Source: a virus
Taxonomy: Duplodnaviria > Heunggongvirae > Uroviricota > Caudoviricetes
IMG/VR virus record: IMGVR_UViG_3300005748_000132
Coordinates: 1-20,179 of that record
Reading direction: 5' to 3' (one strand)
DNA: 20,179 bases
Part shown: piece after piece, positions 230 through 20,179 of the stretch
Layout of the letters: each line of letters begins with the position of its first letter
Numbering within the stretch: position 1 is the stretch's first letter
The notes under the pieces: model-generated
Seen by the model: the letters and a program-made list of their open reading frames with translations, nothing else
Databases searched by the model: none
Told to the model about the DNA's origin: nothing
Position numbers and translations under genes: made by a program

Positions 230-418
230 TTACTCCTTTACCATTTCGTCAAGATATTGCATGTTAAGTTCATGAAGCTCCTTTTCAAGCTCCTTAGTTC
301 TGACACTATCCCTATCCGAGTAGACAAAGATTTTAGTTTCTAGTTCGTTGATTTTTTCTAGTAAGTAATGTTTTTCCCATGCTTTTTCTTGCTGGGTTAA
401 AATAGTTGTTAAGTTCAT
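230..418 (-). CDS. Small hypothetical early protein (helical/coiled-coil)
   Basis: ORF-track ORF 230..469. Start moved to ATG 418, which has a GGGGAA RBS; the upstream part is a promoter. Confidence 0.75.
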   Translation of the reverse strand: MNLTTILTQQEKAWEKHYLLEKINELETKIFVYSDRDSVRTKELEKELHELNMQYLDEMVKE

Positions 419-439
419 GTTTCCCCTTTTGTTACTTAT

Positions 440-469
440 ATTATAGCACATAGTGTCAAAGTTAGTCAA
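440..469 (-). promoter_or_regulatory. sigma70-type early promoter
   Basis: TTGACT-18 bp-TATAAT with a TGTG extended -10. The spacer contains the TAGTGTC heptamer. Confidence 0.75.
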
Positions 470-699
470 GTAGTTTTTGAGTAATTTCTATAATAAGTAG
501 ATTCTAAAAATTCCTTTATATGACTTGGTTTATACTTATCATAATTCATTTGACGGGTTCCATACAGCTTAAATTCCTCACTATTTTCCCACCCGTGATC
601 TTTTTCATTGTATTCTTCAAACCCTTTGGGGAGCTTCATTTCATTAGGTGCTAAACAGTAATTTCCCCAATACCATGTTTCAAAACGTACCTTTTTCAT
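466..699 (-). CDS. Hypothetical early protein
   Basis: 77-aa ORF with GAGGAG RBS, tightly packed against its neighbours. Confidence 0.75.
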   Translation of the reverse strand: MKKVRFETWYWGNYCLAPNEMKLPKGFEEYNEKDHGWENSEEFKLYGTRQMNYDKYKPSHIKEFLESTYYRNYSKTT

Positions 700-702
700 A
701 AT

Positions 703-987
703 TCACTCCTCTATGTTAAAAAGTTCTATAGTATGTTCATCTCCGTAACTATCTACAAGGTAAGTTAGACACCCTTGTTCTGTATACAACATGATATCTC
801 TATTCGCAACGCTACAATCATACACTATATATTCCTTATCGTCAACAAATACTGAAAAGTCTACTTCCACGCTTAAGCTTTCATCTGCGGTTAAACTTAG
901 CTCAATAAGGTCGTTTATATCAGTTATAGGAAGCTTGTAAACTCGACCAGTTTCTGAATCTCTCATTAATTTGATTTTGTTGCTCAT
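703..987 (-). CDS. Hypothetical acidic early protein
   Basis: 94-aa ORF with GGGG RBS, directly downstream of the promoter at 1015-1043. About 21 D/E versus 7 K/R. Confidence 0.8.
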   Translation of the reverse strand: MSNKIKLMRDSETGRVYKLPITDINDLIELSLTADESLSVEVDFSVFVDDKEYIVYDCSVANRDIMLYTEQGCLTYLVDSYGDEHTIELFNIEE

Positions 988-1014
988 ATTTTCCCCTTGT
1001 CAGTTCCTATAATA

Positions 1015-1043
1015 AGTATAACACACTGCGTTAAATATTGCAA
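1015..1043 (-). promoter_or_regulatory. sigma70-type early promoter
   Basis: TTGCAA-17 bp-TATACT with a TGTG extended -10. Confidence 0.7.
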
Positions 1044-1102
1044 CAACTTTTTTACTTATTTTGTAAATATTTACTACGGAAAAGCTACGGATATAGTAAA
1101 CC

Positions 1103-1131
1103 TTGACAATAAACTAGGTTTATGCTATAAT
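1103..1131 (+). promoter_or_regulatory. Perfect-consensus sigma70 promoter, divergent from the 1015-1043 promoter
   Basis: TTGACA-17 bp-TATAAT with a TATG extended -10. Confidence 0.85.
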
Positions 1132-1212
1132 TCACTAAATGCTTGAAAATAGAGCTATATTGAAATTAGATAGTTATTATCTAAAAATTGTATAGGTATA
1201 AATAACTTAATA

Positions 1213-1225
1213 TTGACAACTATAT
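1213..1225 (+). promoter_or_regulatory. Candidate phage late-promoter motif TTGACAACTATAT
   Basis: Identical 13-mer also at 12146 and 15845, with variants at 8608 and 17712. Each is upstream of a + strand gene. Confidence 0.6.
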
Positions 1226-1240
1226 AAGGAAAGGAAACTT

Positions 1241-1441
1241 ATGTCAAAGCTTGATCACGGTAAAAGAAACAAACTAGAAAAGTTAAGACGACAAAGTGGT
1301 GAGAGAGTTTACAAGCCTAAAAAAGCTACAAGTAAACAAAAAGAGTTGATGAAAAAACTAGGCATTAAATTTGAACCAAACATAAATAGAAAAACCGCTT
1401 CATTAAAAATTAGTGAGGTTTTAAATAAAAAGAACGTATAA
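1241..1441 (+). CDS. Small basic protein, possible nucleic-acid binder
   Basis: 66 aa, AAGGA RBS, very K/R-rich. The C-terminal ATSKQKELMKKLG...TASLKISEVL resembles the AT.KQ...L..LG....AS..I small helical motif (DUF3072-like). Confidence 0.75.
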   Translation: MSKLDHGKRNKLEKLRRQSGERVYKPKKATSKQKELMKKLGIKFEPNINRKTASLKISEVLNKKNV

Positions 1442-1755
1442 GACCGACGACCGTTAAAAATGACCGAAAGGAAGGAAACGACCGAAAGGCTAAGAGGATT
1501 CAGGGCGATACTAAACAAAAGAAGTTTAGGGTAGAATTAAAGCTGAAATACTTTAATACTGAATACTAGATTAGGAAAGCCAGAACTAACTAGCGGAAAG
1601 CGTTGCTCTAAGTACTTGAAATTCACAAGCATTTTACTACGGGAATTAAAGATAAGTAGTAACATGAAAACAACCACTTAGCATATTCGCCACACTAAGA
1701 GGTAAAGTTTTCTATACCCAAAATTCAACACTAATTACTTTACCGAATCACCACA

Positions 1756-1842
1756 CTAACCTAGTAACAACCTCAACACTATAACAAACAACCCAGCAAA
1801 ACAACATTGCATAACCAAGTGAATAAGTTTATAATCTGACAC
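1756..1842 (-). CDS. Putative 28-aa membrane peptide
   Basis: Below ORF-track cutoff. AAGGAG RBS 6 nt before GTG; MSDYKLIHLVMQCCFAGLFVIVLRLLLG has one hydrophobic segment. Confidence 0.45.
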   Translation of the reverse strand: MSDYKLIHLVMQCCFAGLFVIVLRLLLG

Positions 1843-1967
1843 TAAATACTCCTTTTGTGAACACTACTATAAGCAAGTAGTAATAGTTTATAAAAATGCA
1901 ACACTACAAATTCCATTTCGTAGCATTGCGATATAGTAACCTGTTATGAGAGAGAGTGTATAACAGG

Positions 1968-2174
1968 CTAAAAATTAGTTAAGATTTTAGTACGTAAATG
2001 AATGTTAATGTTTATAGTACTTTCAACGTTTTCTAGACCCCTGAGCACCCTACCATATTCTTCACCACCATCCCACTTAGTAACCGAGACTGGTATCCTA
2101 TCAATACTATTTATTAACCTAGTCCTTTCAGCTCGTAACTCGTTTAACCTCTTATCAATTTCCTGTATTGTCAC
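1968..2174 (-). CDS. Hypothetical early protein (N-terminal coiled coil)
   Basis: 68-aa ORF, GTG start, strong AGGAGG RBS. Confidence 0.75.
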   Translation of the reverse strand: MTIQEIDKRLNELRAERTRLINSIDRIPVSVTKWDGGEEYGRVLRGLENVESTININIHLRTKILTNF

Positions 2175-2369
2175 AATTTACCTCCTAAATAAATATTATT
2201 TACTACAAAGCTCTCACAAGTCTTATACGCCATTTTAGTTCCAACCCTACCTTAGGTATAGACCTAGGTACTAGAAGCTCACCTCAGCTAAATTAGCTAC
2301 CAATTAGAGCCTGATATAACTTAGTTCTAGTAGTGTCGTAGTTTACTCCTATTAGTTATTTCTTAATAT

Positions 2370-2753
2370 TTATATGGTCCAGTATTCACCATTGACAACA
2401 CTATAAGCATATAAGTTACTTACATCATTAACCTGCTTGAACTTACCTAGTACTTCAGTCTTACCATTTTGGTATAATAAAGAAGCTTCTCCTTTATAGT
2501 CTCTGACAAGTATACTCTCTTGATCAAAGCTCTTGAAAGCAAAGTCCTTAATAGCTTCAAATTCTTCCTCGTTCTTAAATATCACCATAAAGCTTTCTTC
2601 CGTACTCCCCTTGTAGCAGCCCTGTATTTGCTTATAAGGTAGTTCTAGCTCTTGTAACATGGAATCTAGTAGCTCTGTACGTTGGTGGTTATTTCTAGCT
2701 GATAAAGTGCTTAATTCTGCTGATAAGATGATAAATTCTTTTAGTTGTTTCAT
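2370..2753 (-). CDS. S-adenosylmethionine lyase/hydrolase (T3 gp0.3 SAMase-like), anti-restriction
   Basis: Collinear motif matches to T3 SAMase as recalled: FIILSAE..L...N..R (T3 VLVSAF..L...N..R), GCYKG..EE (GCYRE...EE), FDQESILV (WEQDCVLV), ASLLY (AGLVY), LGKFKQV (PGSFQEV), NGEYWTI (GRRWQV). Positioned directly behind an early promoter. Confidence 0.8.
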   Translation of the reverse strand: MKQLKEFIILSAELSTLSARNNHQRTELLDSMLQELELPYKQIQGCYKGSTEESFMVIFKNEEEFEAIKDFAFKSFDQESILVRDYKGEASLLYQNGKTEVLGKFKQVNDVSNLYAYSVVNGEYWTI

Positions 2754-2777
2754 ATATACCCTTTTGTTTGTTTATTC

Positions 2778-2807
2778 ATCATAACACATTGCGTCATAAC
2801 CTGTCAA
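2778..2807 (-). promoter_or_regulatory. sigma70-type early promoter for the SAM lyase gene
   Basis: TTGACA-18 bp-TATGAT with a TGTG extended -10. Confidence 0.75.
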
Positions 2808-2902
2808 GCTTTATTAAACAACTTATTTAACTCATATACATAACTCTCATAAGTTATAACATTGTTTTCATAGTAGTATAATAGTTCTTGCATTGTAAAC
2901 AT
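2804..2902 (-). CDS. Putative 32-aa early peptide
   Basis: Below cutoff. AAGGGAG RBS; MFTMQELLYYYENNVITYESYVYELNKLFNKA; directly behind the promoter at 2932-2959. Confidence 0.55.
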   Translation of the reverse strand: MFTMQELLYYYENNVITYESYVYELNKLFNKA

Positions 2903-2931
2903 ATAAGCTCCTTATGCGTTGCGTCATAATC

Positions 2932-2959
2932 AGTATACCACAACTAAAATCAGAGTCAA
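2932..2959 (-). promoter_or_regulatory. sigma70-type early promoter
   Basis: TTGACT-16 bp-TATACT with a TGTG extended -10. Confidence 0.6.
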
Positions 2960-2992
2960 CACTTTTTTAAACTTTATTCACTATTCTAATGA

Positions 2993-3005
2993 TATCAAGT
3001 AGTTA
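2993..3005 (+). promoter_or_regulatory. IHF consensus site
   Basis: TATCAAGTAGTTA matches WATCAANNNNTTR exactly, in AT-rich non-coding DNA. Confidence 0.5.
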
Positions 3006-3114
3006 CTAAAATACCTTGTTATTAGTCCTTAATAAGCTCTATATAGTGTCGTGATTTATACCTATATGATAAGTAGCGTTTGGTATCTGGTGAGCATATG
3101 GAGGATGTGAGGTG

Positions 3115-3232
3115 GTAAATAGAATATGTTTAGGTAGTGGGAGCCAAGGAGTATTTTGTAAACAGGATTTGTTTAGTGGTATAGGATTTGCAGGGGGTAA
3201 ATAAGATTTGTTTATAAATAGTTTTTGTTTAG
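3115..3232. repeat. Four imperfect 19-bp dyad repeats, consensus RTAAAYA-N5-TGTTTAK
   Basis: GTAAATAGAATATGTTTAG (3115), GTAAACAGGATTTGTTTAG (3158), GTAAATAAGATTTGTTTAT (3197) and ATAAATAGTTTTTGTTTAG (3214), in non-coding DNA. Confidence 0.75.
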
Positions 3233-3253
3233 GGGAGGGTAGGGGGTAAGGGG
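3232..3253 (+). other. Canonical G-quadruplex-forming sequence
   Basis: GGGG-A-GGG-TA-GGGGG-TAA-GGGG: four G-runs of at least 3 with 1-3 nt loops. Confidence 0.65.
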
Positions 3254-3312
3254 ATTATGGTTGGGTTATAAAGTAGTGGTATACTGAGAGAACCATTTTC
3301 ATAACTTTACTT

Positions 3313-3531
3313 TTAATACACTATTTTCCTAATATAGTCATTCACTAACTTCTTAGTTGCTTTAACAAAACTATCAGTATTCTCAGAACTTCTAGGAACA
3401 AGCAACCTTTCTTCTCCGCAAATATTACAAGTACTTACTACTGTATGAGACTGTGCTAATAACCCATGTCTCCAGTGTGACCAATTATGATCCTCATTTT
3501 TACACTCTAATGGTAATTCAAGTTGTTTCAT
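3313..3531 (-). CDS. Hypothetical protein, possible small Zn-binding motif
   Basis: 72 aa with C..., H and CNIC residues; last gene of the leftward block before the non-coding region. Confidence 0.65.
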   Translation of the reverse strand: MKQLELPLECKNEDHNWSHWRHGLLAQSHTVVSTCNICGEERLLVPRSSENTDSFVKATKKLVNDYIRKIVY

Positions 3532-3535
3532 ATTT

Positions 3536-3736
3536 TTACAACCCTTCTATTCTTAATACACTATTTACCAACTCTACATACTTCTCAGGTAACTTAATCA
3601 TATCACCCTCTTTTTCACTCAAAGAAGCTGCTATACCCAATTCGATGCCAATATTACCCGTTTTACCAACTTTTCTAGAATAGTACACAATAGCTTTCTT
3701 TACGTCTTCTACTGGTATTTTAGTGTCAGATTTCAT
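3536..3736 (-). CDS. Hypothetical protein
   Basis: 66 aa, AGGAG RBS, ATGA overlap with the upstream gene. Confidence 0.75.
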   Translation of the reverse strand: MKSDTKIPVEDVKKAIVYYSRKVGKTGNIGIELGIAASLSEKEGDMIKLPEKYVELVNSVLRIEGL

Positions 3737-4071
3737 TTCAAATACTCCTTATCAATACTGATAACCTCAGCTTGCATGGGAGCTATTACACTATGAAGAA
3801 TCTCATCACTTACGCAATTGTTAAATATCTCTACCACATCTGCTCTAAACCCTTGTATTTTATGAGGATACTCTTCTATGTTATCTCTGTAATATATCCT
3901 ATAGTTACCAAATTGTAAATACATATCAGACTTATTCGCGTATAATTCGTTACTCAACCTCTTGAAATAACTACAATCTTGTTCAAATGCTTCTTTTGAA
4001 CCTATCGATTCAGAAGTTCTCTTTCTTGTAGGATATAACTTTAGTATTATTTTAGTGTCAGATTTTTTCAT
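3733..4071 (-). CDS. Hypothetical protein
   Basis: 112-aa ORF with GGAG RBS in a tightly packed operon. Confidence 0.75.
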   Translation of the reverse strand: MKKSDTKIILKLYPTRKRTSESIGSKEAFEQDCSYFKRLSNELYANKSDMYLQFGNYRIYYRDNIEEYPHKIQGFRADVVEIFNNCVSDEILHSVIAPMQAEVISIDKEYLK

Positions 4072-4077
4072 ACTCTG

Positions 4078-4368
4078 TTACTCCAACTTCTTTATCAAGT
4101 CCTCTAAAGCCTGCTCCTCCCAATCTTCAGGTGATCCCGGAGGACAATGGTTATCTAATTCTATATTCATCACTTTTAATTTTACTACACTATTTACAAA
4201 TAGTTGAAAAAAATCTTCCATCTCTACTAATTTTAGTAACTTAGGAGGTTTTATATAGTCGCGTTTCCAAAATGGAGTACTGACTATTTTACCCTCTTCA
4301 TATATAGCTATTTTCTTATGTATAGGGAATATATTGATAAAATAGTTCCCAGTATCTAGATTTTCCAT
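4078..4368 (-). CDS. Hypothetical protein
   Basis: 96 aa, GGAGAGG RBS. Confidence 0.75.
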   Translation of the reverse strand: MENLDTGNYFINIFPIHKKIAIYEEGKIVSTPFWKRDYIKPPKLLKLVEMEDFFQLFVNSVVKLKVMNIELDNHCPPGSPEDWEEQALEDLIKKLE

Positions 4369-4408
4369 ACCTCTCCATATTTTTTAAAAGCTTTAAATAG
4401 TTAATACA

Positions 4409-4660
4409 CTATATTTCTAGCATTTCTACCAATTTAGTTTCGTTTCCTACATCTATCATAATAAATTTTCTAGCTAGTAGTTTTTCACTTTCTATTATAA
4501 CATATTCTGGTTCATACTCTAATACTTCGTTATTTTCATCTTTAATATATTCCAATAGTGCTTTTATTTCATCTTTGTTTTTTATTTCCTCATTACTGAA
4601 TCTATACACCTTTTCTTTATATTCTACTACAATACTGACATTTCCTACTATTACCTTCAT
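4409..4660 (-). CDS. Hypothetical protein
   Basis: 83 aa, same orientation as the surrounding block. Confidence 0.7.
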   Translation of the reverse strand: MKVIVGNVSIVVEYKEKVYRFSNEEIKNKDEIKALLEYIKDENNEVLEYEPEYVIIESEKLLARKFIMIDVGNETKLVEMLEI

Positions 4661-4693
4661 TCTGTTAATTCCTTGAAAAGATCAAACTTGGTT

Positions 4694-4936
4694 TCATTCC
4701 TCTAAATCTCCATTCAAATAACTATCATACTCCTCTCTTGACAACACTACCATTCTATCAGTTATACTAGTCGCATACCCTCTAGCGTTCATGAACCTCT
4801 TAAACACCTCTAGTTCTCCAGAAGCGTTAGTGTCGCCGTCATTATAGATTATTTCTATACCCATCTCAGGTATCAAAGCTTCTATCTCATCGTCATACCA
4901 GCTTTCTGTCGTTGTTTTTAGAATAACTTTACTCAT
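4694..4936 (-). CDS. Hypothetical acidic protein
   Basis: 80 aa, AAGGA RBS, ATGA-coupled to the upstream small ORF. Confidence 0.75.
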   Translation of the reverse strand: MSKVILKTTTESWYDDEIEALIPEMGIEIIYNDGDTNASGELEVFKRFMNARGYATSITDRMVVLSREEYDSYLNGDLEE

Positions 4937-5091
4937 TTGTCTTCCTTTACTGGTTCTCCGACACTATTTACCCTCTCCAAAGCTTCTTTCCACCATTTAT
5001 CATACTTTTTCTTGTATTCAAATAACTCTTCAGCAGATAAGTGTCGTAGTTTTTTATTAAAAAGTTCCTCTAGTTCGTCAATCGTTGCCAT
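4933..5091 (-). CDS. Hypothetical 52-aa protein
   Basis: Below cutoff. MATIDELEELFNKKLRHLSAEELFEYKKKYDKWWKEALERVNSVGEPVKEDK; GAAGGT RBS; its stop overlaps the next start (ATGA). Confidence 0.7.
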   Translation of the reverse strand: MATIDELEELFNKKLRHLSAEELFEYKKKYDKWWKEALERVNSVGEPVKEDK

Positions 5092-5166
5092 AAATACCTT
5101 CTCAGAAGCCCATATTTAGCTTATATGAGCTTTTAACCCCTAAACCCAGCTTACCATACCAGTTTA

Positions 5167-5379
5167 TCACTCCGAGTCCTTAGAGAGCCATTTACGAGCT
5201 TCTGAGCGTATGTCGTCTATATTGGTTTCTGTAGTGTCCTCGTTTTCAATTTCCTCAGAAAAGAAGTCTTCTAGGAATTTTATAGCTTTAGAAGCTGGTA
5301 AGTTAGTGATATCACCTGTTTTAGGGTTACGAATTAGTAGTCTTCCGTTATCTAAGCGTCTTATCATTAGGTCGAACAT
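5167..5379 (-). CDS. Hypothetical protein
   Basis: 70 aa, TAATG overlap with the upstream gene. Confidence 0.7.
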   Translation of the reverse strand: MFDLMIRRLDNGRLLIRNPKTGDITNLPASKAIKFLEDFFSEEIENEDTTETNIDDIRSEARKWLSKDSE

Positions 5380-5618
5380 TAGTCTCTCACTTTTAGTATT
5401 ACTGAACCATTTATAGTATTCATAGTAATTTCTCTAATCAATCTAGAGTGTCCGTCTTCGTCAATTTCGTAAGGATCTTGTCCGTCAGAAGCTAATATTT
5501 GTATCATCATACCGGGTTCTATCATAAAGATAGGAGTTATTCCAAATAAAAAATTCTCTGATAGATCTGACATAAGCTGTTCACATATGTCTATGAACTT
5601 ATCTTCTGGTTTTATCAT
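5379..5618 (-). CDS. Hypothetical acidic protein
   Basis: 79 aa, GAGGA RBS. Confidence 0.7.
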   Translation of the reverse strand: MIKPEDKFIDICEQLMSDLSENFLFGITPIFMIEPGMMIQILASDGQDPYEIDEDGHSRLIREITMNTINGSVILKVRD

Positions 5619-5802
5619 ATTCGTTCCTCACTTTTACTGTTTTCAATGTTTTATCTTCGTAATAGCTTCTTACAATTAAAGCTATTGTAGTAGTATAACA
5701 TAGTGTTTGGAAAATTGCAACACTAAAACTCTCTCCTGTACCAGATAATACCAAAGTTAGTAGTGTCAGAAAAGCTGCTAGGACTATTTTGAACCTTACC
5801 AT
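5599..5802 (-). CDS. Small membrane protein with two hydrophobic segments
   Basis: ORF-track 5599..5814; start moved to ATG 5802 (GAGGGAG RBS). Segments IVLAAFLTLLTLVLSG and FSVAIFQTLCYTTTIALIV are hydrophobic. Confidence 0.7.
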   Translation of the reverse strand: MVRFKIVLAAFLTLLTLVLSGTGESFSVAIFQTLCYTTTIALIVRSYYEDKTLKTVKVRNEYDKTRR

Positions 5803-6023
5803 ACTCCCTCGCAACGAAATTTCTCTGAAGTAGTGTCGTTATATGGGTCTTTGCGGTCAATATAGAACCTACACATTTCATTATCTGTACCGAAGTAGTT
5901 GATATCCTTACAAACTTTAATATTTTCTGTAAAATGGCGACAATAGTTCACTTTTCCGTCAGGTAAAGTGGTAGTACAGCCTGTAAGTAGTAGTAAAATG
6001 GTTAAAATCAGCTTATTCACCAT
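5796..6023 (-). CDS. Small Cys-rich lipoprotein
   Basis: MVNK-LILTILLLLTG-C: basic N-region, hydrophobic core and a lipobox (LTGC), plus four further Cys residues. Confidence 0.75.
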   Translation of the reverse strand: MVNKLILTILLLLTGCTTTLPDGKVNYCRHFTENIKVCKDINYFGTDNEMCRFYIDRKDPYNDTTSEKFRCEGVW

Positions 6024-6201
6024 ACTTTACCCCTCGCTTAGCAGCTTCTAGCAACTTCTCGCTTATAATACTGATTTTACGTAATATGAACTGTTTAGTG
6101 TCGGGTTCTATGTCGAAATCATTTAAGGAAGCTATGAGTTCTTCTCTGTATGCTTCGATTTTCTTAAGTTCTTCTGGGTCTTCAAATGGTCTAAATTCCA
6201 T
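6013..6201 (-). CDS. Hypothetical helical protein
   Basis: 62 aa, AAGGA RBS. Confidence 0.7.
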   Translation of the reverse strand: MEFRPFEDPEELKKIEAYREELIASLNDFDIEPDTKQFILRKISIISEKLLEAAKRGVKYGE

Positions 6202-6260
6202 TACTTTTCCTTTCTAACATTATTTTCGTGATAGTAACAATTTTATGTTAGGATCACTTT

Positions 6261-6428
6261 TCATTCTATCTCCAATAGGGTATTTACCTTTAAAGGTACG
6301 TAATAAGCTACTGTACCGTATATCACCTGTCTTCTGTGTATCTCAGAGACTATTTCGTAGATGGTTCCTTTGAAGGTGATTTCTTCTCCAGAGTCTACTT
6401 CTACGAATACTATCTCTACTTGTTCCAT
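6261..6428 (-). CDS. Hypothetical protein
   Basis: ORF-track 6261..6446; start moved to ATG 6428 (AAGGTGA RBS). Lies behind the promoter at 6467-6495. Confidence 0.7.
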   Translation of the reverse strand: MEQVEIVFVEVDSGEEITFKGTIYEIVSEIHRRQVIYGTVAYYVPLKVNTLLEIE

Positions 6429-6437
6429 GTCACCTTT

Positions 6438-6459
6438 TAGTGTCAAAATCGCGACACTA
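6438..6459. promoter_or_regulatory. Operator-like inverted repeat TAGTGTC-N8-GACACTA
   Basis: Two heptamers in inverted orientation lying between a consensus promoter and the RBS. Confidence 0.55.
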
Positions 6460-6466
6460 CTTGACG

Positions 6467-6495
6467 ATTATATCATATTTTTTAACTTGAGTCAA
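6467..6495 (-). promoter_or_regulatory. sigma70-type promoter
   Basis: TTGACT-17 bp-TATAAT with a TATG extended -10. Confidence 0.8.
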
Positions 6496-7174: not shown

Positions 7175-7462
7175 CTATTTCCTTTTAAAAGCTACGATCT
7201 TCGTACTAACTTTATTAGGTTCTATATCTATCCTGACCGCTTCTTCCATAAGTTCCTCAGAAAGCTTACCTGCTAGGTGATACTTCAAAACGTCTTCTTC
7301 TTCGCTAGTAAAGTTAGTTTTGATGACGGACTGACTCTGTGACACTATAACTATGTTCTCATCCATCCATTTATGTACGGTGCGGATTTTGTCCATATGA
7401 CTCATGTCCTCGTTAAACTGCTCTCCTAGCTCAATAAGCTTATATAGTACTTCTTTTTCCAT
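7175..7462 (-). CDS. Hypothetical protein
   Basis: 95 aa, GAGGTG RBS. Confidence 0.75.
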   Translation of the reverse strand: MEKEVLYKLIELGEQFNEDMSHMDKIRTVHKWMDENIVIVSQSQSVIKTNFTSEEEDVLKYHLAGKLSEELMEEAVRIDIEPNKVSTKIVAFKRK

Positions 7463-7470: not shown

Positions 7471-7572
7471 TCATCCGTCACTATTGATTGTTTTAGTAGT
7501 ATACGTCACCCCTAGCTTCGTAGTAGTTTTTCTGTAAGATTTTTCATGGTGTTTTTCTGACACTACTGACAT
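7471..7572 (-). CDS. Possible 33-aa peptide
   Basis: Below cutoff. MSVVSEKHHEKSYRKTTTKLGVTYTTKTINSDG fills the gap exactly; GGGGTGG upstream. Confidence 0.4.
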   Translation of the reverse strand: MSVVSEKHHEKSYRKTTTKLGVTYTTKTINSDG

Positions 7573-9388: not shown

Positions 9389-9733
9389 ATGCAACTTGAT
9401 TTAGAACTAGAATTAAAAGCTTTACAGGAAGAGATTGTAAAACTCAAGTCAGAAAACGCGACTCTAAAAGAGGTTATTGTTGAGAACGGTTTGGAAGCTG
9501 AGATTCCTGATATCGACCTTGTTTCTGTTGAAGAGAAAGCTTGTATAGACGGAATAGGTCATTTAGCTAAATTACTAGAGTCAGGTAATTTTACAAAAGA
9601 CGACGTTAAAGCTTTTTCTGATTTACATAACACACTCAGTAAGGTGAGAGGTAAATCTCCTGCTGGTAAAAGTAAGGTTAAATCTGCTGAAGTTAAGACG
9701 TTGTTAAAAGCTATTAGTGGAGATAAGAAGTAG
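9389..9733 (+). CDS. Probable terminase small subunit
   Basis: 114-aa helical protein with a basic C-terminus just upstream of TerL (with the HNH gene between). Call is positional. Confidence 0.5.
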   Translation: MQLDLELELKALQEEIVKLKSENATLKEVIVENGLEAEIPDIDLVSVEEKACIDGIGHLAKLLESGNFTKDDVKAFSDLHNTLSKVRGKSPAGKSKVKSAEVKTLLKAISGDKK

Positions 9734-10572
9734 TGTCTAGGAAATATTTAGACTACAGCTCAGAAGGTAGAAAATGTTCTAAATGTGGAGAATATAAACT
9801 TTGGTCTGAGTATCATAAATCTAAAAAAGAACCTTCTGGATACAAATCGGCTTGTAAGTCTTGTAGAAATAAAGATAAAAAAAAGTATAATAAAAAAATA
9901 TCGGATTCTAAACCTGAATTTACTCACATTTTAATGAACCCTAACGGTAGACATTGTAGAGACTGTAATGAGTTTAAACCTCTTAGTGAGTATAATAAAT
10001 CGGACAGACATATGTTAAACAGAATGTATCACTGTAAGGAATGTAGAAACAAAGAAATGAGAGATAGGTTTAAAGACCCCGATATTAAAAAAAGGAGAAA
10101 CGAACTCACAAGAAAGTGGAAACAAATACCTGAGAACAAAAAAAGAATATTAGAAAGCAGTAAAAGATATCGTCTGAAAAACAAAGAAAAAGTCAAAGAA
10201 AGATGTGCTAAATATAGAAAGGAGAATCCTGATAAAGTGAGAGAAGCTCAACGTAGATACAATGAGAAAAATCCTCATGTTAGAAAACGTCGTAAAATGA
10301 GAAGACGGAAGACAGAAAAACAAGCTCTAGTGTCATGGAGAAATGAAGATAAAATTAGACAAATTTACAAAAAAGCTAAAGAACTTCAAAAAGAAACTGG
10401 GGTAAAATATCATGTCGATCACATCATACCTCTTAACCATCCTAATGTTTGTGGACTTCACGTAGAAGCTAATTTACAAGTAATAACAGCTTCTGAAAAC
10501 TGTGCGAAACAAAATAGGTTCGATAATACTTATGAAAACGAATCATGGAGAATGGAGATTTATGCAGAGTGA
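9733..10572 (+). CDS. HNH endonuclease with two C4 zinc-finger repeats (homing endonuclease-like)
   Basis: CSKC...CKSC and CRDC...CKEC repeats, a basic helical linker, and the C-terminal HVDHIIPL...GLHVEANLQVITASENCAKQN HNH motif. GTG start overlaps the previous stop. Confidence 0.9.
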   Translation: MSRKYLDYSSEGRKCSKCGEYKLWSEYHKSKKEPSGYKSACKSCRNKDKKKYNKKISDSKPEFTHILMNPNGRHCRDCNEFKPLSEYNKSDRHMLNRMYHCKECRNKEMRDRFKDPDIKKRRNELTRKWKQIPENKKRILESSKRYRLKNKEKVKERCAKYRKENPDKVREAQRRYNEKNPHVRKRRKMRRRKTEKQALVSWRNEDKIRQIYKKAKELQKETGVKYHVDHIIPLNHPNVCGLHVEANLQVITASENCAKQNRFDNTYENESWRMEIYAE

Positions 10573-12182: not shown

Positions 12183-14288
12183 ATGAAACAAGTATATTTT
12201 GCTGCTGATAAAGCTGAGAATACAATAGACGTCTTAACGGAAAAAGCCCGAAGTTGGTTTACAGGTATTTCTGATTCTACTTACATTGATAAAATTGAGC
12301 GTTCTTGGAGAGCTTATTACGGAGATTACTACGACACTAATAATGCTCATCAAATAAGCTTTGGAGGCGAGTCTGGTGAAATCGTACAACTAGCTGTAAA
12401 TCACTTTAGAAACCTTGCTGAACACATTCATGGTATGGTTACAGGCTCTAGACCAGCATTACAATGTAGAGCTATTAATACGGATAAGAAATCGCTTATT
12501 CAGGCGAAGTTAGGAAACGGTCTACTCGACTACTACATGAGAGAAATGAGACTAGAAGAAGTCCTCAATGATGCTGTTGAATATGCAATTATACTAGGGT
12601 CAGGTTACGTTAAGCTAGAGTGGAATAGTACGAAAGGTAAAGTCTATGATGTAATCGAACCTGATCCTAATTCTATCTTTGGAGAAAACGAAGACGGTGA
12701 GCCTGTCGATGAAGATGGAAATGTCCTTACTGGTTTTCCTATTCATGAGGGTGATTTAGAGTTCGGACTAGTGTCTCCTTATGATATAATCTTCGACTCT
12801 ACAAAACCATACTTTTCTAAGAACGACTGGGTTGTTATAAGAACAGCTAAAAACAGATTTGACCTAGCCGCAAAATACCCAGAGCTAGAAGAAAAGTTAC
12901 TAAATATAGAAACTGTAGATAAAGCTCAAAAGAGTGGTACAGATACTCCTCATAATACTGAGAACGAAACTGACGATATTTTTGTTTACGAGTTTTTTCA
13001 CAAAAGAACCGAGTCCATGACCAATGGTCGTTATATGCTTTATGTTAATAACGAGATCATTTTAGAAGATACGGTAATGCCTTATAGAAGCTTACCAGTG
13101 TACAGAATCACTCCTTCAAATATTATAGGAACTCCTTACGGTTATACTAACATGTTTGACCTACTTCCTCTACAGGAAATGCTTAACTCAATGTACTCAA
13201 CAGCAGCTTCAAATATAAATGCTTTTGGTTTACAAAGTGTCATGGTTCCAAGAGAAGCAGGGGTAGAGTTTGAACAAGTCGGTAACGGTATGCAGTTCAT
13301 AAAATACAACGCTCTTAACGGAGGTGGTAAACCTGAACCTATGCAGCTTACAGCTACTAGTCCAGAAGTTTATCAGATGATGCAGCTTCTTGAAAAAGGA
13401 ATGGAGACCTTATCAGGTGTAAATAGTGTCGCGAGAGGTAATCCTGACGCTGCCCTACGCTCTGGTAACGCATTAGCCTTAGTACAAGCTCAGGCTTTAC
13501 AATTTGTAAATAAACTAGAGAACTCTTACGTGAGACTTATTGAAGACGTAGGTACAGGAGTTATAAACCTTCTTAAAGACTTTGCTTCAGTCCCTAGAAC
13601 TATTGCTATTTCTGGAGTAAATAATGCTACAGAAATGAGAGACTTTAAATCTGACGATATAAAATCAATTAATAGGGTTGTGGTTGATAGAGGGAACGCT
13701 CTTATGAACTCTACAGCAGGTAGAGCGCAGGTAGCTGAGAACCTTTTACAGATGGGATTGATTACTGACGTTAACGATTACTTGATGGTTCTTAACACTG
13801 GTAACTTGAATGTAGCTACTGACTCTAAAATAGATAACTCGATACTTATAATTTCTGAAAACGAAGCTATGATAAAGGGTGAGAGACAACAGGCTATTTG
13901 GTCTGAGAAACATTCGCAGCATATCATGAAACATATGGAACTTCTGAACGACGCTGAGTTGAAAAAAGATCCACTTTTATCTCAAATTGTACTCGAACAT
14001 GTTCAGGAGCATGTTAATCTACTACGTACTACTGATCCTTCAATATTATCTATGATTGGGGAAGCCCCACTTCCACCAGCACCAGCTCCTGCTGCACCCG
14101 GACAACCCGGTTCTATGGGAACGGTCACTCCTCCTCAAAATGCACAAGCTCCAGTTCCTGATCAAGGTAATGCTCCAATGATGACACCTAATCAACAAGC
14201 TCCTAGTAATCTCCCGGAACCAGCTACTCCGGCTGGGGTGGATTCTGGAATCTTACCTCCAATGCCTACAACCCCTGAGGAGATGTAA
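12183..14288 (+). CDS. Portal protein with Pro/Gln-rich C-terminal tail
   Basis: 701 aa directly after TerL. Portal-type features include an N-terminal helical region, YP.V/LPVYRI-like P-element and ARGNP..RSGNA.A segments. Confidence 0.88.
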   Translation: MKQVYFAADKAENTIDVLTEKARSWFTGISDSTYIDKIERSWRAYYGDYYDTNNAHQISFGGESGEIVQLAVNHFRNLAEHIHGMVTGSRPALQCRAINTDKKSLIQAKLGNGLLDYYMREMRLEEVLNDAVEYAIILGSGYVKLEWNSTKGKVYDVIEPDPNSIFGENEDGEPVDEDGNVLTGFPIHEGDLEFGLVSPYDIIFDSTKPYFSKNDWVVIRTAKNRFDLAAKYPELEEKLLNIETVDKAQKSGTDTPHNTENETDDIFVYEFFHKRTESMTNGRYMLYVNNEIILEDTVMPYRSLPVYRITPSNIIGTPYGYTNMFDLLPLQEMLNSMYSTAASNINAFGLQSVMVPREAGVEFEQVGNGMQFIKYNALNGGGKPEPMQLTATSPEVYQMMQLLEKGMETLSGVNSVARGNPDAALRSGNALALVQAQALQFVNKLENSYVRLIEDVGTGVINLLKDFASVPRTIAISGVNNATEMRDFKSDDIKSINRVVVDRGNALMNSTAGRAQVAENLLQMGLITDVNDYLMVLNTGNLNVATDSKIDNSILIISENEAMIKGERQQAIWSEKHSQHIMKHMELLNDAELKKDPLLSQIVLEHVQEHVNLLRTTDPSILSMIGEAPLPPAPAPAAPGQPGSMGTVTPPQNAQAPVPDQGNAPMMTPNQQAPSNLPEPATPAGVDSGILPPMPTTPEEM

Positions 14289-14724: not shown

Positions 14725-15771
14725 ATGAGTGACGAAAACGTAAGTGCAGAAGCACCAGCAGAAACATCTGCACCAGAAGCAACAGAATCGGCTGCAGAAG
14801 CTTCGGATGAATCAGGACAGGTAGAACTAAATGAGTCAGGAGAGGAAGGTTCTGAGGAGTCTCAGGAGCTTTCAGGAGATGAGAGTTCAGAAGAGTCTGT
14901 AGAAGTTCAAGCTGAAACAGAAGAAGAGTTAGAAGCTGAAATTGAAGAAGCTATTGAGAATGGAGCTAGTGAAGAAGAAGTTCAGTCAATGGTTCGTCAG
15001 TTTGTACTAAAAGTTGACGGTAAAGAGTTTACAAAAGAAATTGATCTTAGTGACGAAGATGCTGTTAGAGCAGAACTTCAGAAAGCTTATAAAGGTCAAC
15101 TTACTATGCAGGAAAAAGCAGAGCAAGAGAAGTTATTTAAGCAGTTTTTAGAGGGAGTTCAAGCTGACCCATTTAAACTAATTAAGCAACTTAACCCTGA
15201 TTTTGACCCTATTGATTATTCTAGTAAGTATTTTGATGACCTTCTTAAAGAACAAGAGCTTAGTCCAGAGGAAAAAGCTGCTCAAGAACGTGAGAGAAAA
15301 TACCAAGAAGCTATTGACAAAGCTGAGAGATTAGAAAGAGAAGCTAGAGAGCGCGAGGAAGCTGAAGAAAATGCTAAGTTGACAGCTAGTTTTAAAAACT
15401 CTATTGAACAAGCTTTAGAGGCTGACCCTGAACTTAAAGTTGATAACGCTACAGTATCTAGAGTGGCTTACCATATGTACGAAGCTGCTAAGAAAGGCTT
15501 AGAGCTGGAACCTAAACAAGTTCTTGATAGTGTCAAAAAAGAGATTCGCGACCAGTTTCAAAGAAGTGCTGGTATGTTGAAAGATCAGAAACTACTTAGT
15601 AAATATATGGGTGAAGATTTATCAGAAGCTCTTAGAAGAACTAGAGTCGAGCAAGCGGCTAAAAAAGTTCCTTCTGCTAGTGATATTAAGAATGTCAGTA
15701 AACCTAAAGACCCTCAGAAAGAAGAAAAGCCTAAATTGAGCTTAAAAGATTTTATGAGAGGCAATCTCTAA
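14725..15771 (+). CDS. Capsid assembly scaffolding protein
   Basis: 348 aa between portal and capsid. Extremely acidic low-complexity N-terminus, LKVDGKE motif, coiled coils and a basic C-terminal tail; AAGGAG RBS. Confidence 0.8.
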   Translation: MSDENVSAEAPAETSAPEATESAAEASDESGQVELNESGEEGSEESQELSGDESSEESVEVQAETEEELEAEIEEAIENGASEEEVQSMVRQFVLKVDGKEFTKEIDLSDEDAVRAELQKAYKGQLTMQEKAEQEKLFKQFLEGVQADPFKLIKQLNPDFDPIDYSSKYFDDLLKEQELSPEEKAAQERERKYQEAIDKAERLEREAREREEAEENAKLTASFKNSIEQALEADPELKVDNATVSRVAYHMYEAAKKGLELEPKQVLDSVKKEIRDQFQRSAGMLKDQKLLSKYMGEDLSEALRRTRVEQAAKKVPSASDIKNVSKPKDPQKEEKPKLSLKDFMRGNL

Positions 15772-17354: not shown

Positions 17355-17383
17355 AGGGGAGCTTAGTTCTCCCCTTCTTTTTT
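17355..17383 (+). terminator. Rho-independent terminator after the capsid gene
   Basis: AGGGGAG-CTTAGTT-CTCCCCT followed by TCTTTTTT. Confidence 0.85.
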
Positions 17384-17396
17384 ACAAGGATAAATC

Positions 17397-17603
17397 ATGG
17401 CTATTAGAAACCAATTGAAAGTAGATCTTAAGGCTAATCTTAATAAAGACCTTGCTGAACAGATTGAAAAGTTGATTGACGATCATGTAGCTCTAGTTGC
17501 TGCTCATAATGCACTACTAGCTCAACTTGACCTAGATGCTGGAGTAACAGATACAGACTACGAAGCTAATCACGAAGTTACTGCTACTTTGGACGTTGAT
17601 TAA
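17397..17603 (+). CDS. Small virion protein (possible capsid decoration protein)
   Basis: 68 aa, AAGGA RBS, directly after the capsid gene, with similar codon bias. Confidence 0.7.
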   Translation: MAIRNQLKVDLKANLNKDLAEQIEKLIDDHVALVAAHNALLAQLDLDAGVTDTDYEANHEVTATLDVD

Positions 17604-17625
17604 TAATTAAAAAATACTATAAACT

Positions 17626-17657
17626 AGCCTCAGACAAGTTCTGGGGCTTTTTTGTTT
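17626..17657 (+). terminator. Rho-independent terminator
   Basis: AGCCTCAGA-CAAGT-TCTGGGGCT followed by TTTTTGTTT. Confidence 0.85.
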
Positions 17658-17711
17658 AAGTACCTAATATTACTCCATTTTCCAAGAAATAGCGTATTTA
17701 AACCCTGTATA

Positions 17712-17724
17712 TTAACAACTATAT
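17712..17724 (+). promoter_or_regulatory. Late-promoter motif variant TTAACAACTATAT
   Basis: 12/13 match, located just after a terminator and before a new structural transcription unit. Confidence 0.6.
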
Positions 17725-17754
17725 TATAGAGTAAAAACTCTATTGGAGAATATC

Positions 17755-18243
17755 ATGTCAAAAACACTTACAGTACGAGACGAAGTATTTAAATATCCAG
17801 ACGTAGGAGATTCCAATTACGCTGAAGAAGCTACAGGATGGGCTGAAGAAGTAACCGACGTACTCACCAATGTCTCTGGTCCCGGAGATATAGCAACAAC
17901 AGAATTAACCCTTTCAGGAACTGACACAGGTACTCATATTGAAGGTACTATTACAGGTATGTTATTTGATACGGCTTTCGTACAATCTATAGAAGTTACT
18001 GGGTTTATAACTAGAACCTACACAGACGCTACTCCTGATCAAGTTGAAAGATTTGTCATAGAGGGAGCTTATAATGGAACTACCCTTAACTTCAGTGAAG
18101 AATTTGTAGGGGACGATACTGAGCTAAATTTCACAGTTACAGGTGGACAGTTCGGATTCAGTTACCTTAAAATAGCCAATACAGACACAGTGACAATTAA
18201 ATTCGAAGGTAATGCTTTTATAAATGAAGGATTTTTTGAATAA
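17755..18243 (+). CDS. Beta-rich acidic virion structural protein
   Basis: ORF-track 17743..18243; ATG 17755 with GGAG RBS preferred. Thr/Gly/Phe-rich alternating pattern. Confidence 0.75.
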   Translation: MSKTLTVRDEVFKYPDVGDSNYAEEATGWAEEVTDVLTNVSGPGDIATTELTLSGTDTGTHIEGTITGMLFDTAFVQSIEVTGFITRTYTDATPDQVERFVIEGAYNGTTLNFSEEFVGDDTELNFTVTGGQFGFSYLKIANTDTVTIKFEGNAFINEGFFE

Positions 18244-18259
18244 TACGGAGATATAAGAT

Positions 18260-20179
18260 ATGTCAAAATTAAGAAAAAAGTTTGGACTAGGGGTATTACT
18301 AAAACCTTCTACTTCAGCTACAACTAAAGAAGGTGAGTTACGAGTAGATCCTTCTGATATGAAGTTCAAAGCTTACTTGGATTCTGCTGAAAGGTCGATA
18401 GTAACTGAAGACCAAACTCAAACACTAACAAATAAAACAATCGAAGACATAACATTAGACGGTGACTTATCAGGTACAGCTATTCTTGACGAAGACGATA
18501 TGGTCAGTGATTCTGACACTAAACTAGCTACTCAACAGTCAATTAAAGCTTATGTTGATGCTCAAATACAGTCTAAAGACGAAGCTTCTGAAATAGCTTA
18601 TGATAACACAACTTCAGGACTAGTTGCTACAGACGTACAAGCTGCTGTTGACGAAGTTGAAGCTAGAGTAGACCAGAACGAAGTAGACATAGCTTCTAAT
18701 GAATCTGATATAACTGACAACGCTGCAAACATAGCTACAAACACCTCTAACATCTCCACAAACGCTTCTACTATCTCTGAGGTAGATCAGAACGTAGATG
18801 ACCTTATAACGCTTTCTGGGGTCGCTGAGAACTCTACAGACTTAGGTACTTTTACAGGTACTACAATAGCTGATAACGAAACGGTTAAAGGAGCTTTACA
18901 AGACCTAGAAGATGGTATTGAAGCTATAGACGTTACAAGCAAGGTAGATAAAGTTTCACCTTCTACAGATAATGCAATAGTTAGATTTGACGGAGTTACT
19001 GGGGATCAACAGGATTCTGGAGTAACAATAAATGACTTAGATGAAATAGAAGGGGCTACTAAAATAACTGTAGACTTACTTGAGATTGACAGTAATAGTA
19101 TATCTAACGTTAGTGCTAACCCTGTTACTGGAGATATAGTTTTAACTCCTCTAGCGGACAAAGTCACACTTTTAGAAGAAGGTAGTCAACTTAGAGGTGA
19201 CGTAAGTTTTGAATCTTATGTAGACACTACTACAGGAAGCAATGCTACTTTAATAGAACCCGAAGATACGGTAGCTTCTTTAACTAGTGATGCTTTAGTT
19301 AGTATTGATATGATTCCTAGAGTAAAAACATCTAATGTGTTAGATGTTTTTTTAATCTTACAAAATAATTCAACTACTCCGAAAATAATTAATAATGAGA
19401 CAGGAGCTACAGCAGGTGATCAAATCATAACTGGTACAGGAGCTGCTATAACACTAGAAGCTGGTTCGGCTATTAGTTTAATATATAATACCAATAAAAA
19501 TAAATGGCAAGTTCTAGGAGGCACTGGTTCAGGAACAGGTGGTTCTGGAGGATTTAACTATATTGAAAATGGTACTGCTGAAACAGATACCGCAGGATGG
19601 ACAGTTTACGCGAACACTACTCCTGATACTAGACCTGATGACTTTGGGGGTACACCTTCTGGTAACTTAACTTTTACTCAGAACACTACAAATCCTCTTG
19701 TTGAAGACGCTGATTTCAAGCTTTCTAAAACAGCTAGTAACGTACAAGGTGAAGGGGTTTATTACCAGTTTACAGCAGAAGAAGGACATAAGACTTTAAA
19801 GAACCTTCTTAAACTAATTGCAGATACTTCAGCTTTAGACGACGGTGATTTAACTTTCTATTTAGTAAGCTCAAGCGATAGTTTTGTAGCTGACTTTAAC
19901 ATAATTTCACCTAATAACCCTGATTTGATAGCAGGTTCTCCTCAGATACTAAAGCAATTCCAGTTTGACGCTAGTGACGATGATTACAGACTTTGTATTC
20001 ACTACGCTAGTACGGATACTGACGCTAAAGACGCTTATTTTGATGATATTGAGTTGGGACCTAGAGAGACAGCTACTGGGTATTTTGGAACTGATTCTGT
20101 AGCTTGGACTCCTACTGGTACTCATACTACTAATACTACTTATTCTGGTTTTTATAAAAGAGACGGGGAGAGTATAAGT
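18260..20179 (+). CDS. Mosaic fibre/adhesin-like virion protein, truncated by window edge (at least 640 aa)
   Basis: Not in ORF track because it has no stop in the window. Open from ATG 18260 (MSKLRKKFGLGVLLKP...) to the end. Contains recurrent phage-fibre motifs TQTLTNKT, LDEDDMVSDSDTKLATQQSIKAYVD, YDNTTSGLVATDVQAAVDEV and DNAIVRFDGVTG, a NxxxIxxN coiled coil, a GGTGSGTGGSGG linker, then an NYIENGTAETDTAGW jelly-roll/CBM-like domain start. Confidence 0.85.
   Translation, partial: MSKLRKKFGLGVLLKPSTSATTKEGELRVDPSDMKFKAYLDSAERSIVTEDQTQTLTNKTIEDITLDGDLSGTAILDEDDMVSDSDTKLATQQSIKAYVDAQIQSKDEASEIAYDNTTSGLVATDVQAAVDEVEARVDQNEVDIASNESDITDNAANIATNTSNISTNASTISEVDQNVDDLITLSGVAENSTDLGTFTGTTIADNETVKGALQDLEDGIEAIDVTSKVDKVSPSTDNAIVRFDGVTGDQQDSGVTINDLDEIEGATKITVDLLEIDSNSISNVSANPVTGDIVLTPLADKVTLLEEGSQLRGDVSFESYVDTTTGSNATLIEPEDTVASLTSDALVSIDMIPRVKTSNVLDVFLILQNNSTTPKIINNETGATAGDQIITGTGAAITLEAGSAISLIYNTNKNKWQVLGGTGSGTGGSGGFNYIENGTAETDTAGWTVYANTTPDTRPDDFGGTPSGNLTFTQNTTNPLVEDADFKLSKTASNVQGEGVYYQFTAEEGHKTLKNLLKLIADTSALDDGDLTFYLVSSSDSFVADFNIISPNNPDLIAGSPQILKQFQFDASDDDYRLCIHYASTDTDAKDAYFDDIELGPRETATGYFGTDSVAWTPTGTHTTNTTYSGFYKRDGESIS

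Follow-up and report, generated by a model that had tools for sequence, protein, structure and literature searches.

What reads a seven-letter DNA word that a virus carries 111 times, on both strands and mostly inside its genes? The question is raised by the heptamer TAGTGTC in the 20,179-nucleotide stretch analysed here (the window), the opening part of a single virus record of 84,179 bp (IMG/VR record IMGVR_UViG_3300005748_000132; Caudoviricetes; 35.6% G+C). The record derives from an uncultured marine phage, has a terminal overlap of 40 nt and is classed as complete in IMG/VR. A first-pass annotation of the window had described the heptamer as over-represented in operator-like positions and had suggested a repressor or nucleoid-like protein, a primase, or a modification or self-recognition system as its reader. 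The evidence below establishes TAGTGTC(R), where R is a purine, as a DNA-level recognition word that is orientation-free, genome-wide and not a coding artefact. Its function can be named only tentatively: a Chi-type signal for an end-processing helicase-nuclease, belonging to the host or to the phage, is the preferred reading, with a probability of roughly one in three.

Enrichment of the word

An exact search of the window recovered 25 copies of TAGTGTC (16 on the plus and nine on the minus strand), each at the position and on the strand first reported. Dinucleotide-preserving shuffles of the window (100 replicates) gave 3.19 ± 1.72 copies, with a largest value of 9, and the excess previously put at about 10-fold is a fair description of the 7.8-fold found. 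The whole genome holds 111 copies, 55 on the plus and 56 on the minus strand, against the 10-14 (~13) expected from Markov models of orders 0-3. All words were ranked at orders 1 and 3, and at both TAGTGTC is the top 7-mer of the genome; the top 8-mer is TAGTGTCG, with 53 copies where ~2 are expected. A copy of TAGTGTC(R) occurs about every 760 bp, or every 1.5 kb when each strand is taken alone. A literature search found no paper containing the word.

The excess is not a by-product of protein coding. Gene models for the genome comprise 146 open reading frames (ORFs), called by the author, which cover ~95% of the sequence. A codon-preserving shuffle had been named in advance as able to refute the enrichment; when synonymous codons were shuffled within genes, 26.8 ± 4.0 copies were obtained, and a shuffle of codon order gave 19.2 ± 3.4, both against the 111 observed. 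When all 7-mers were ranked against 60 synonymous shuffles, TAGTGTC still came first (z 16.4). The earlier remark that copies lie in several reading frames and both orientations is borne out genome-wide: the copies within ORFs encode Asp-Thr (36), Thr-Leu (23), Val-Ser (17) or Ser-Val (26), and since all four stop-free frames are used, a peptide motif cannot explain them. Furthermore, at least one of the three residues involved differs from the nearest relative at 43 of the 50 sites that could be aligned to one (~39 expected), so that copies come from amino-acid replacements too and not from codon choice alone.

The second most enriched 7-mer of the genome is AGAAGCT/AGCTTCT, with 132 copies against 51 under synonymous shuffling. 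It lies mostly in one frame and in the sense orientation (NNA-GAA-GCT, 77 of 131) and is common to relatives such as L160, L161 and L163; its excess is a codon-pair bias of the phage family and does not mark a site.

Position and flanking sequence

Genes lie on the minus strand at 1-8019 and 44421-84169 and on the plus strand at 8639-44420. Copies of the word fall inside ORFs in 103 of 111 cases (93%; 20 of 25 in the window), in proportion to coding content, and are read in both senses relative to transcription (43 sense, 60 antisense). No significant excess was found within 30 nt of start codons (17 copies against 11.7 expected, P 0.07), no part of the genome has a significant strand skew, and the spacing fits a Poisson process (coefficient of variation (CV) 1.09 against 0.99 in simulations). 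The operator-like positions that had been claimed are therefore what random scatter gives. A concentration in the early region had also been noted, and 17 window copies do lie at or below position 7565. This region is the densest (1.95 per kb), and its excess is modest against the replication block (1.39 per kb) and the late genes (0.94 per kb); each of the three blocks stands 5- to 12-fold above expectation. The lowest densities occur in two blocks of large late genes at 23357-28012 and 35288-40252.

The word has a characteristic 3' flank and can be extended to TAGTGTC-R-N-R-R-W. The next base is a purine at 94 of 111 copies (G 53, A 41; 85%), as had been seen in the window (21 of 25; A 12, G 9). 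The third and fourth flanking bases are each purines in 80% of copies, the fifth is A or T in 87%, and an A/T-rich stretch lies beyond. The usual flanks are GCGATTT, GAGATTT and AGAWWW, and the flanked site can be represented by the TAGTGTCGCGATTT-type form. Words with one mismatch at position 1 or 2 are depleted to 0.2-0.6 times expectation, and a moderate enrichment is seen for TAGCGTC, TAGGGTC and TATTGTC. Much of the flank signature recurs at TAGTGTT and TATTGTC, which look like proto-sites or decayed sites.

Relatives and turnover of sites

The word characterises a subclade, within which its density is graded. Among IMG/VR and JGI contigs, those whose capsid protein is 69-84% identical or whose polymerase is 47-79% identical contain it at or below chance; they include the word-poor L021, in which the polymerase (79%), the helicase (68%) and the gene product g105 (63%) are shared. 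Closer relatives, reached by protein search and with capsids 84-93% identical, carry the word. In the 10.8-kb early region of L171 (L171:9400-20159; capsid 92% identical), 15 copies were found where 1.6 are expected (P 2e-10), and TAGTGTC is the top 7-mer there. Similarly, the early region of L173 (L173:7600-20414, from an 84,409-nt genome, ENA ERZ2485795 NODE_82, with a capsid 84% identical) has seven copies against 1.7 expected; all seven are followed by a purine, in flanks such as AGAAT, AGATT, AGAGT and GCGATTT. Structural regions of the closer relatives show a 2.3- to 3.4-fold excess. The family also includes a 26.9-kb contig of ERZ17293418 and about 15 further genomes of 77-87 kb. A megablast search of the window against the phage collection gave no match, and relatives of the terminase and capsid protein in that collection are only 23-28% identical.

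Individual sites are not preferentially kept. The numbers shared with relatives are 2 of 10 (L171), 1 of 13 (L173), 2 of 4 (L170) and 1 of 5 (L164), and the retention of all 7-mers in the same alignments is 13%, 9%, 32% and 20%, respectively; each word-bearing genome has private copies. Sharing of sites thus equals neutral 7-mer retention, and the pressure is therefore on density and not on position, with continual gain and loss. The expectation that the motif should be conserved in related phages holds for its density within the subclade; for particular sites, conservation is no better than neutral. Turnover is also visible in marine metagenome contigs, where a C>T change at 12335 destroys the site at 12333; these comparisons list 40 of 1386 differences, and the contigs from capsid-gene runs are mostly less than 95% identical. 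For window 1-10000, no public sequencing run is listed.

A more distant relative has a different dispersed word. G002 (76.7 kb; the record of L008 and of loci L010-L013; capsid 70% identity) carries ATT[CG]TCG 57 times where ~15 are expected, and its top words under the synonymous-shuffle null are ATTCTCG (30 against 6.7) and ATTGTCG (27 against 7.9). The word occurs in all six frames and on both strands, is followed by a purine in 46 of 56 cases, and forms two convergent N8 pairs, one perfect and one without its last base.

Other candidate words were rejected. Among polymerase relatives, GGTAGTCG (L022-L027) and TAGTGCG (L021) fail correction for multiple tests and lie in orthologous places. 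The 22 copies of GTCAGCAC in L168 (0.8 expected) belong to a 15-nt tandem repeat in pentapeptide-repeat genes and are not dispersed; the array, at L168:1-350 and 1426-1989, gives a huge false k-mer signal, and k-mer screens of this kind need a check for dispersion. Matches to TAGTGTC-N8-10-GACACTA in viral_contigs are, among those listed, chance or tandem repeats (repeat-protein genes by eye), and none is in a word-rich sequence.

A Chi-type signal as the preferred reading

Several properties of TAGTGTC(R) match Chi: the word ranks first in its genome, stands on both strands, is indifferent to coding, has a purine-rich 3' flank, turns over and is specific to a lineage. Chi in phages P1, P7 and D6 (on both strands) and in LLS and MD8 (on one strand) is likewise the most frequent oligomer of the genome. 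Like phage Chi, the word is short (7-8 nt), asymmetric and G/T-rich, occurs alike inside and outside ORFs and is accompanied by frequent near-cognates. The Chi sites of P1 and related phages are numerous on either strand (31 of 50 on the top strand), with near-random orientation and similar density in ORFs and non-ORFs (bioRxiv 10.1101/2021.07.08.451572). The 55/56 split found here resembles the random orientation in headful-packaging P1; Chi lies on both strands in permuted genomes of the P1 kind and on one strand in cos or pac lambdoid phages. The activity of E. coli Chi rises strongly when A or G occupies nucleotides 4-7 of the 3' flank, the region in which RecBCD cuts (PMC5041463). Zheng et al. 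expect Chi sites to 'come and go'. The Chi reading is favoured because this is the best-documented reason for a short asymmetric word to be the top oligomer of a phage.

From these properties, all of them observed, we infer a reading enzyme and the events that would follow reading. The reader could be a host enzyme of the RecBCD/AddAB class or a phage-owned counterpart, entering at an end of linear phage DNA and soon meeting a correctly oriented copy. A nick in the purine-rich 3' flank would then stop degradation and switch the enzyme to recombination mode, so that phage DNA would be spared and circularisation or recombination-dependent replication could be fed. The lineage keeps its density by continual gain of new copies, without conserving particular sites; if each added copy brings a small benefit, this would explain a high density with free positions. 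Different hosts would also give the pattern of one word in a subclade and another in G002.

A number of observations weigh against this reading. High Chi content in lambdoid phages accompanies the lack of a recombination module of their own (PMC3784561, PMC12315714), a rule that does not hold for this genome: unlike Chi-rich lambdoids, it encodes its own Sak-like annealing protein (phrog_659, E 3e-56) and several exonucleases. The density is also ~2.5 times higher than in P1 (one per 0.76 kb against one per 1.9 kb). On the host side, the sampling covered 502 bacterial genomes of Pseudomonadota, including Pelagibacterales; the three cellular ribonucleotide reductases found are all from Pelagibacterales, at 42-43% identity. 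TAGTGTCG is not enriched in 101 Pelagibacterales genomes, where 0-15 copies per ~1.2 Mb fall below the reversed control, nor in the other 401 sampled Pseudomonadota genomes, where it is mostly rarer than that control. Moreover, convergent pairs of copies at 8-10 bp are unlike Chi. Five close pairs occur in the genome, with spacers of 8, 9, 10, 19 and 25; all five are convergent with the 3' flanks inside, four are intragenic, and three are perfect pairs with 8-10 bp spacers. Inverted partial partners downstream of the word are also in excess, with GAC at spacer 9 in 11 cases (1.2 expected) and GACAC at spacers 8-11 in nine (0.5 expected), which a signal read on single strands does not predict. 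The convergent pairs at this preferred spacing point to a duplex-reading protein able to dimerise, and the stems stop at the 7-mer without extension, suggesting that each word is read separately and that selection does not act on a hairpin.

Gene content of the phage

The genome encodes a terminase, capsid genes and a portal-type protein, the latter named from precomputed Pfam hits of relatives. Its replication and metabolism genes include a ribonucleotide reductase, a NAMPT/PRPP-synthetase module, a DnaB-like helicase, a DNA polymerase and a dUTPase. Within the window, 2370-2753 on the minus strand encodes an S-adenosylmethionine (SAM) lyase of 127 residues (PF23780, E 9e-24), a protein with a known anti-restriction function; homologues lie in the early regions of the word-bearing L171 and L173. 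Six-frame searches of the genome revealed no Toprim_2 (PF13155), Prim-Pol or T7 primase zinc-ribbon (PF08273) domain, with no match to PF13155 or PF08273 at E<=1, and no DNA methyltransferase of the N6/N4, C5 or Dam type (PF01555, PF00145, PF02086). No base-modification genes were found among the genome proteins scanned, and no repressor or integrase was recognised in the genome.

The conserved protein g105 (genome 65877-66728 on the minus strand; L003:5877-6728) has 283 residues and no Pfam hit of its own. Its motifs DxD, SxH and D are invariant and one homologue matches the archaeo-eukaryotic primase (AEP) domain PF08800 (E 9e-4), so that g105 is probably a divergent AEP-type primase of the phage family; it is conserved equally in relatives without the word. 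An AlphaFold model built from a 6-sequence alignment has a mean predicted local distance difference test (pLDDT) score of 47, too poor to confirm a primase fold. The gene products g109-g112 are specific to this genome in comparison with the replication-module relative L021; g112 is HNH/EndoVII-like, and neither g112 nor g109 has relatives in viral_contigs. Sequence searches of the PDB with g105 and g112 gave nothing useful. A gene-content profile of the ~11-13-kb early region of L171 and L173 picked out two genes only, those of the membrane protein g026 and of the SAM lyase. A zinc-ribbon protein is encoded at window 6604-6978 on the minus strand.

Across the junction of the record, the heptamer GACACCC recurs every 18 nt (8, 26, 44, 62, 80, and 84147 and 84165; window 1-97, genome 84140-84179), as the tandem repeat of a gene with hexapeptide or beta-solenoid repeats (YdcK repeat hits). 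Metagenome contigs pile up on this array to a depth of >400, with joints that go back on themselves, indicating a variable copy number, and the 'terminal repeat' of the record is just the 40-nt overlap within it. In the closest relatives, a GIY-YIG/NUMOD-type homing-endonuclease gene directly follows the portal gene (L160:7130-7939, L164:4848-5678, L170:4446-5288); it is not at the corresponding place in this genome. The terminase ORF of L170 is unusually long, at 758+ residues.

Alternative explanations

A phage-encoded protein that binds duplex DNA at dispersed sites, as a monomer on a half-site with its inner flank and as a dimer on convergent pairs, is possible though doubtful. Its role would be to coat or compact the phage chromosome or to mark it, for instance so that a phage nuclease directed at host DNA could tell it apart as 'self'. 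The fixed geometry of the pairs and the confinement of their stems to the 7-mer would suit such a protein, as would the A/T-rich tract after the core, which recalls the sites of DNA-bending proteins, the random orientation relative to strand and transcription, and the lack of enrichment in any of the 502 bacterial genomes. However, no candidate reader was found, most early proteins being without a family match; the sole early gene present in all three word-bearing genomes and absent in place in two word-less relatives encodes a membrane protein, and g112 and g109 lack relatives in viral_contigs. Only ~10-15% of copies have any inverted partner, and with ~16 bp from centre to centre the two half-sites face opposite sides of the helix. 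We know of no phage DNA-binding protein with more than 100 sites inside genes. A phage-owned 'self' tag, by which a nuclease or helicase, or a duplex-binding partner, would spare or organise word-dense DNA as untagged host DNA is degraded for nucleotides, seems rather unlikely; its specificity would drift between lineages, as the ATT[CG]TCG word of G002 hints. Molecular drive without any cellular function, in which a sequence-specific mismatch or nicking enzyme such as g112 would repair heteroduplexes between co-infecting relatives in favour of the word and so spread it by biased gene conversion, is improbable. It would account for strong enrichment in three diverged genomes with no site conservation above neutral, for the depletion of near-cognates and for copies made by amino-acid as well as synonymous changes (43 of 50 against ~39), and the phage has an active recombination module and the genome-specific g109-g112. 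Yet it is purely inferential, and it explains the flank signature and convergent pairs no better than a Chi or duplex-binding reader does. Known repair-driven biases such as that of E. coli Vsr are also far weaker than the 8- to 26-fold seen here.

The suggestion that the word is a preferred start site of a primase had been based on GTGTC as a T7 gp4 site. The pentamer does lie inside the word, one copy per 1.5 kb per strand is the size of an Okazaki fragment, and the phage has its own polymerase, a DnaB-like helicase and, in g105, a probable AEP-type primase. The T7 form of the idea fails all the same, as no gp4-type domain was matched in six frames and GTGTC outside TAGTGTC occurs 67 times against ~87 expected; the pentamer alone is not enriched and is therefore not the selected unit. 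A phage primase of another kind is also quite improbable, since the Poisson spacing comes with no strand switch that would mark leading and lagging arms, and 0-2 copies of the word were counted in 18-22 kb of relatives that have g105 (44-66%), the helicase (68%) and the polymerase (79%) in common with this phage. It is very unlikely that the word is a target of DNA modification or of host restriction or defence, with copies tolerated as the system is disarmed or serving as decoys. About a tenth of copies read as a bipartite GTC-N9-GACACTA of Type-I-like form, and the SAM lyase is present here and in both word-bearing relatives; restriction targets, however, are normally avoided and not enriched. 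Of the modification or self-recognition system proposed at the outset, the self-recognition form is a possible reading, and methylation is made unlikely by the missing methyltransferase families and by the SAM lyase, which argues against SAM-dependent self-methylation; base-modification genes were also absent from the proteins scanned. Operators or 'stoperators' of a transcriptional repressor, as in mycobacteriophage L5, are the least probable reading of all. The perfect pair at 6438/6453 before an early gene, the three copies that give a GTG beside a ribosome-binding site (1838, 9731 and 68334) and the density of the early region speak for them; the location of 93% of copies within ORFs, the mixed orientation, the sheer number of copies, the lack of a significant start excess, of conserved positions in relatives and of a recognised repressor or integrase speak against them, and the analogy drawn earlier fails. 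In order of decreasing probability, the readings are thus a Chi-type signal, a duplex-binding protein, drive, a primase, modification or defence, and an operator, with the remainder left to something not considered.

Copies in the window

The copies of the window are listed in the table. The pair at 6438/6453 is the only perfect pair in the genome that reaches non-coding DNA. Two adjacent small early genes, 3536-3736(-) and 3733-4071(-), have near-identical N-termini, MK(K)SDTKI, and carry the word in the Asp-Thr codons of both with an AGATTT flank; their 5' ends look paralogous. At three copies (1838, 9731 and genome position 68334), the internal GTG of TA-GTG-TC stands a few bases past a Shine-Dalgarno-like AGGAG or GGAG. 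The ORF that starts at 9733 has 279 residues and precedes the terminase.

Table. Copies of TAGTGTC in the window, with strand, the bases that follow on the strand of the copy, and genomic context
Feature	Position	Strand	Following bases	Location	Remarks
Copy	302..308	-	A	ORF 230-469(-), sense	
Copy	451..457	+	A	near 5' end of ORF 230-469(-), antisense	just below stop of ORF 466-699
Copy	1838..1844	-	AGATT	intergenic	behind AGGAG; GTG inside
Copy	2331..2337	+	G	intergenic, gap between ORF 1968-2174 and SAM lyase gene	
Copy	3044..3050	+	GTGATTT	non-coding stretch 2903-3312	
Copy	3721..3727	+	AGATTT	ORF 3536-3736(-), antisense	codons 4-5 (Asp-Thr)
Copy	4053..4059	+	AGATTT	ORF 3733-4071(-), antisense	codons 5-6 (Asp-Thr)
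Copy	4828..4834	+	G	ORF 4694-4936(-), antisense	
Copy	4960..4966	-	G	ORF 4933-5091(-), sense	
Copy	5232..5238	+	C	ORF 5167-5379(-), antisense	missing at aligned place in L171 and L173
Copy	5761..5767	+	AGAAA	ORF 5599-5802(-), antisense	also in L173
Copy	5831..5837	+	G	ORF 5796-6023(-), antisense	
Copy	6096..6102	+	G	ORF 6013-6201(-), antisense	also in L171
Perfect convergent pair TAGTGTC-N8-GACACTA	6438..6459	+ (6438), - (6453)		5' end of and upstream of ORF 6261-6446(-)	
Copy	7341..7347	-	A	ORF 7175-7462(-), sense	
Copy	7559..7565	-	AGAAAAA	ORF 7471-7596(-), sense	
Copy	9731..9737	+		start of ORF 9733-10572(+)	GTG at 9733 is the listed start; also in L164
Copy	10328..10334	+	A	ORF 9733-10572(+), sense	
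Copy	12333..12339	-		portal gene 12183-14288(+), antisense	private to this genome
Copy	12769..12775	+		portal gene, sense	TAGTTTC or TAGTATC in close relatives
Copy	13424..13430	+		portal gene, sense	also in L170; 1 base off in L160, 2 in L164
Copy	15528..15534	+		ORF 14725-15771(+), sense	also in L160, L164 and L170
Copy	18515..18521	-	AGAAT	ORF 18260-21364(+), antisense	
Copy	19223..19229	-	T	ORF 18260-21364(+), antisense	

Implications and comparison with known systems

Should the word serve as Chi in an uncultured marine host, phage genomes could reveal the recombination signals of bacteria that have not been grown, and shared words could link phages to their hosts. If a phage protein reads it, the word would be a case of dense self-marking in a virus with unmodified DNA, which touches on a long-standing problem, namely how such phages spare their own DNA when they destroy that of the host; in the form of a self tag, it would be a Chi-like self/non-self system that is wholly virus-encoded and leaves the DNA unmodified. 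Three diverged genomes with the word at graded density and one relative with another word make comparative and biochemical tests straightforward. For annotation, the case also warns that a k-mer can stand out strongly in a phage without being regulatory.

Several other known systems offer comparisons. The uptake signal sequences (USS) of Pasteurellaceae and the DNA uptake sequences (DUS) of Neisseriaceae are words of bacterial chromosomes driven by biased uptake in competent cells. The present word resembles them: a short core has an A/T-rich flank, copies stand on both strands at a density of about one per kb, mostly within genes and in several frames, some form inverted pairs, and a weak pressure of the density type maintains them. 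Unlike USS and DUS, it is carried by a phage genome with terminase, portal, capsid and tail genes, and a lytic phage has no uptake route; pairs of USS and DUS, moreover, act as intergenic terminators, unlike the close pairs here, of which four out of five are intragenic. The stoperators of L5 and other cluster A phages (gp71 sites) are likewise asymmetric and spread over a whole phage genome. There are ~20-35 of them, placed in short gaps between genes and pointing along transcription, in temperate phages that have a repressor; the 111 copies found here are 93% intragenic and in both orientations. The T7 gp4 primase recognises GGGTC, TGGTC and GTGTC; the present word differs in its extra 5' TA, its 3' flank and its lack of a strand pattern. 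HIP1 (GCGATCGC) of cyanobacteria is a very dense genome-wide word that is also present inside genes, but it is a palindrome linked to a methyltransferase, with a function unknown or disputed, whereas TAGTGTC is asymmetric and its genome has no recognisable methyltransferase.

To summarize, oligomer enrichment of this kind is known for Chi in coliphages and Pseudomonas phages. What is new is the word itself, its uncultured marine clade, its higher density, its coexistence with a phage recombination module and the geometry of its pairs, together with the different word of G002. Further additions are the relatives that bear the word, the finding that its sites turn over as neutral 7-mers do, the negative results on the host side and the explicit comparison with Chi as a precedent.

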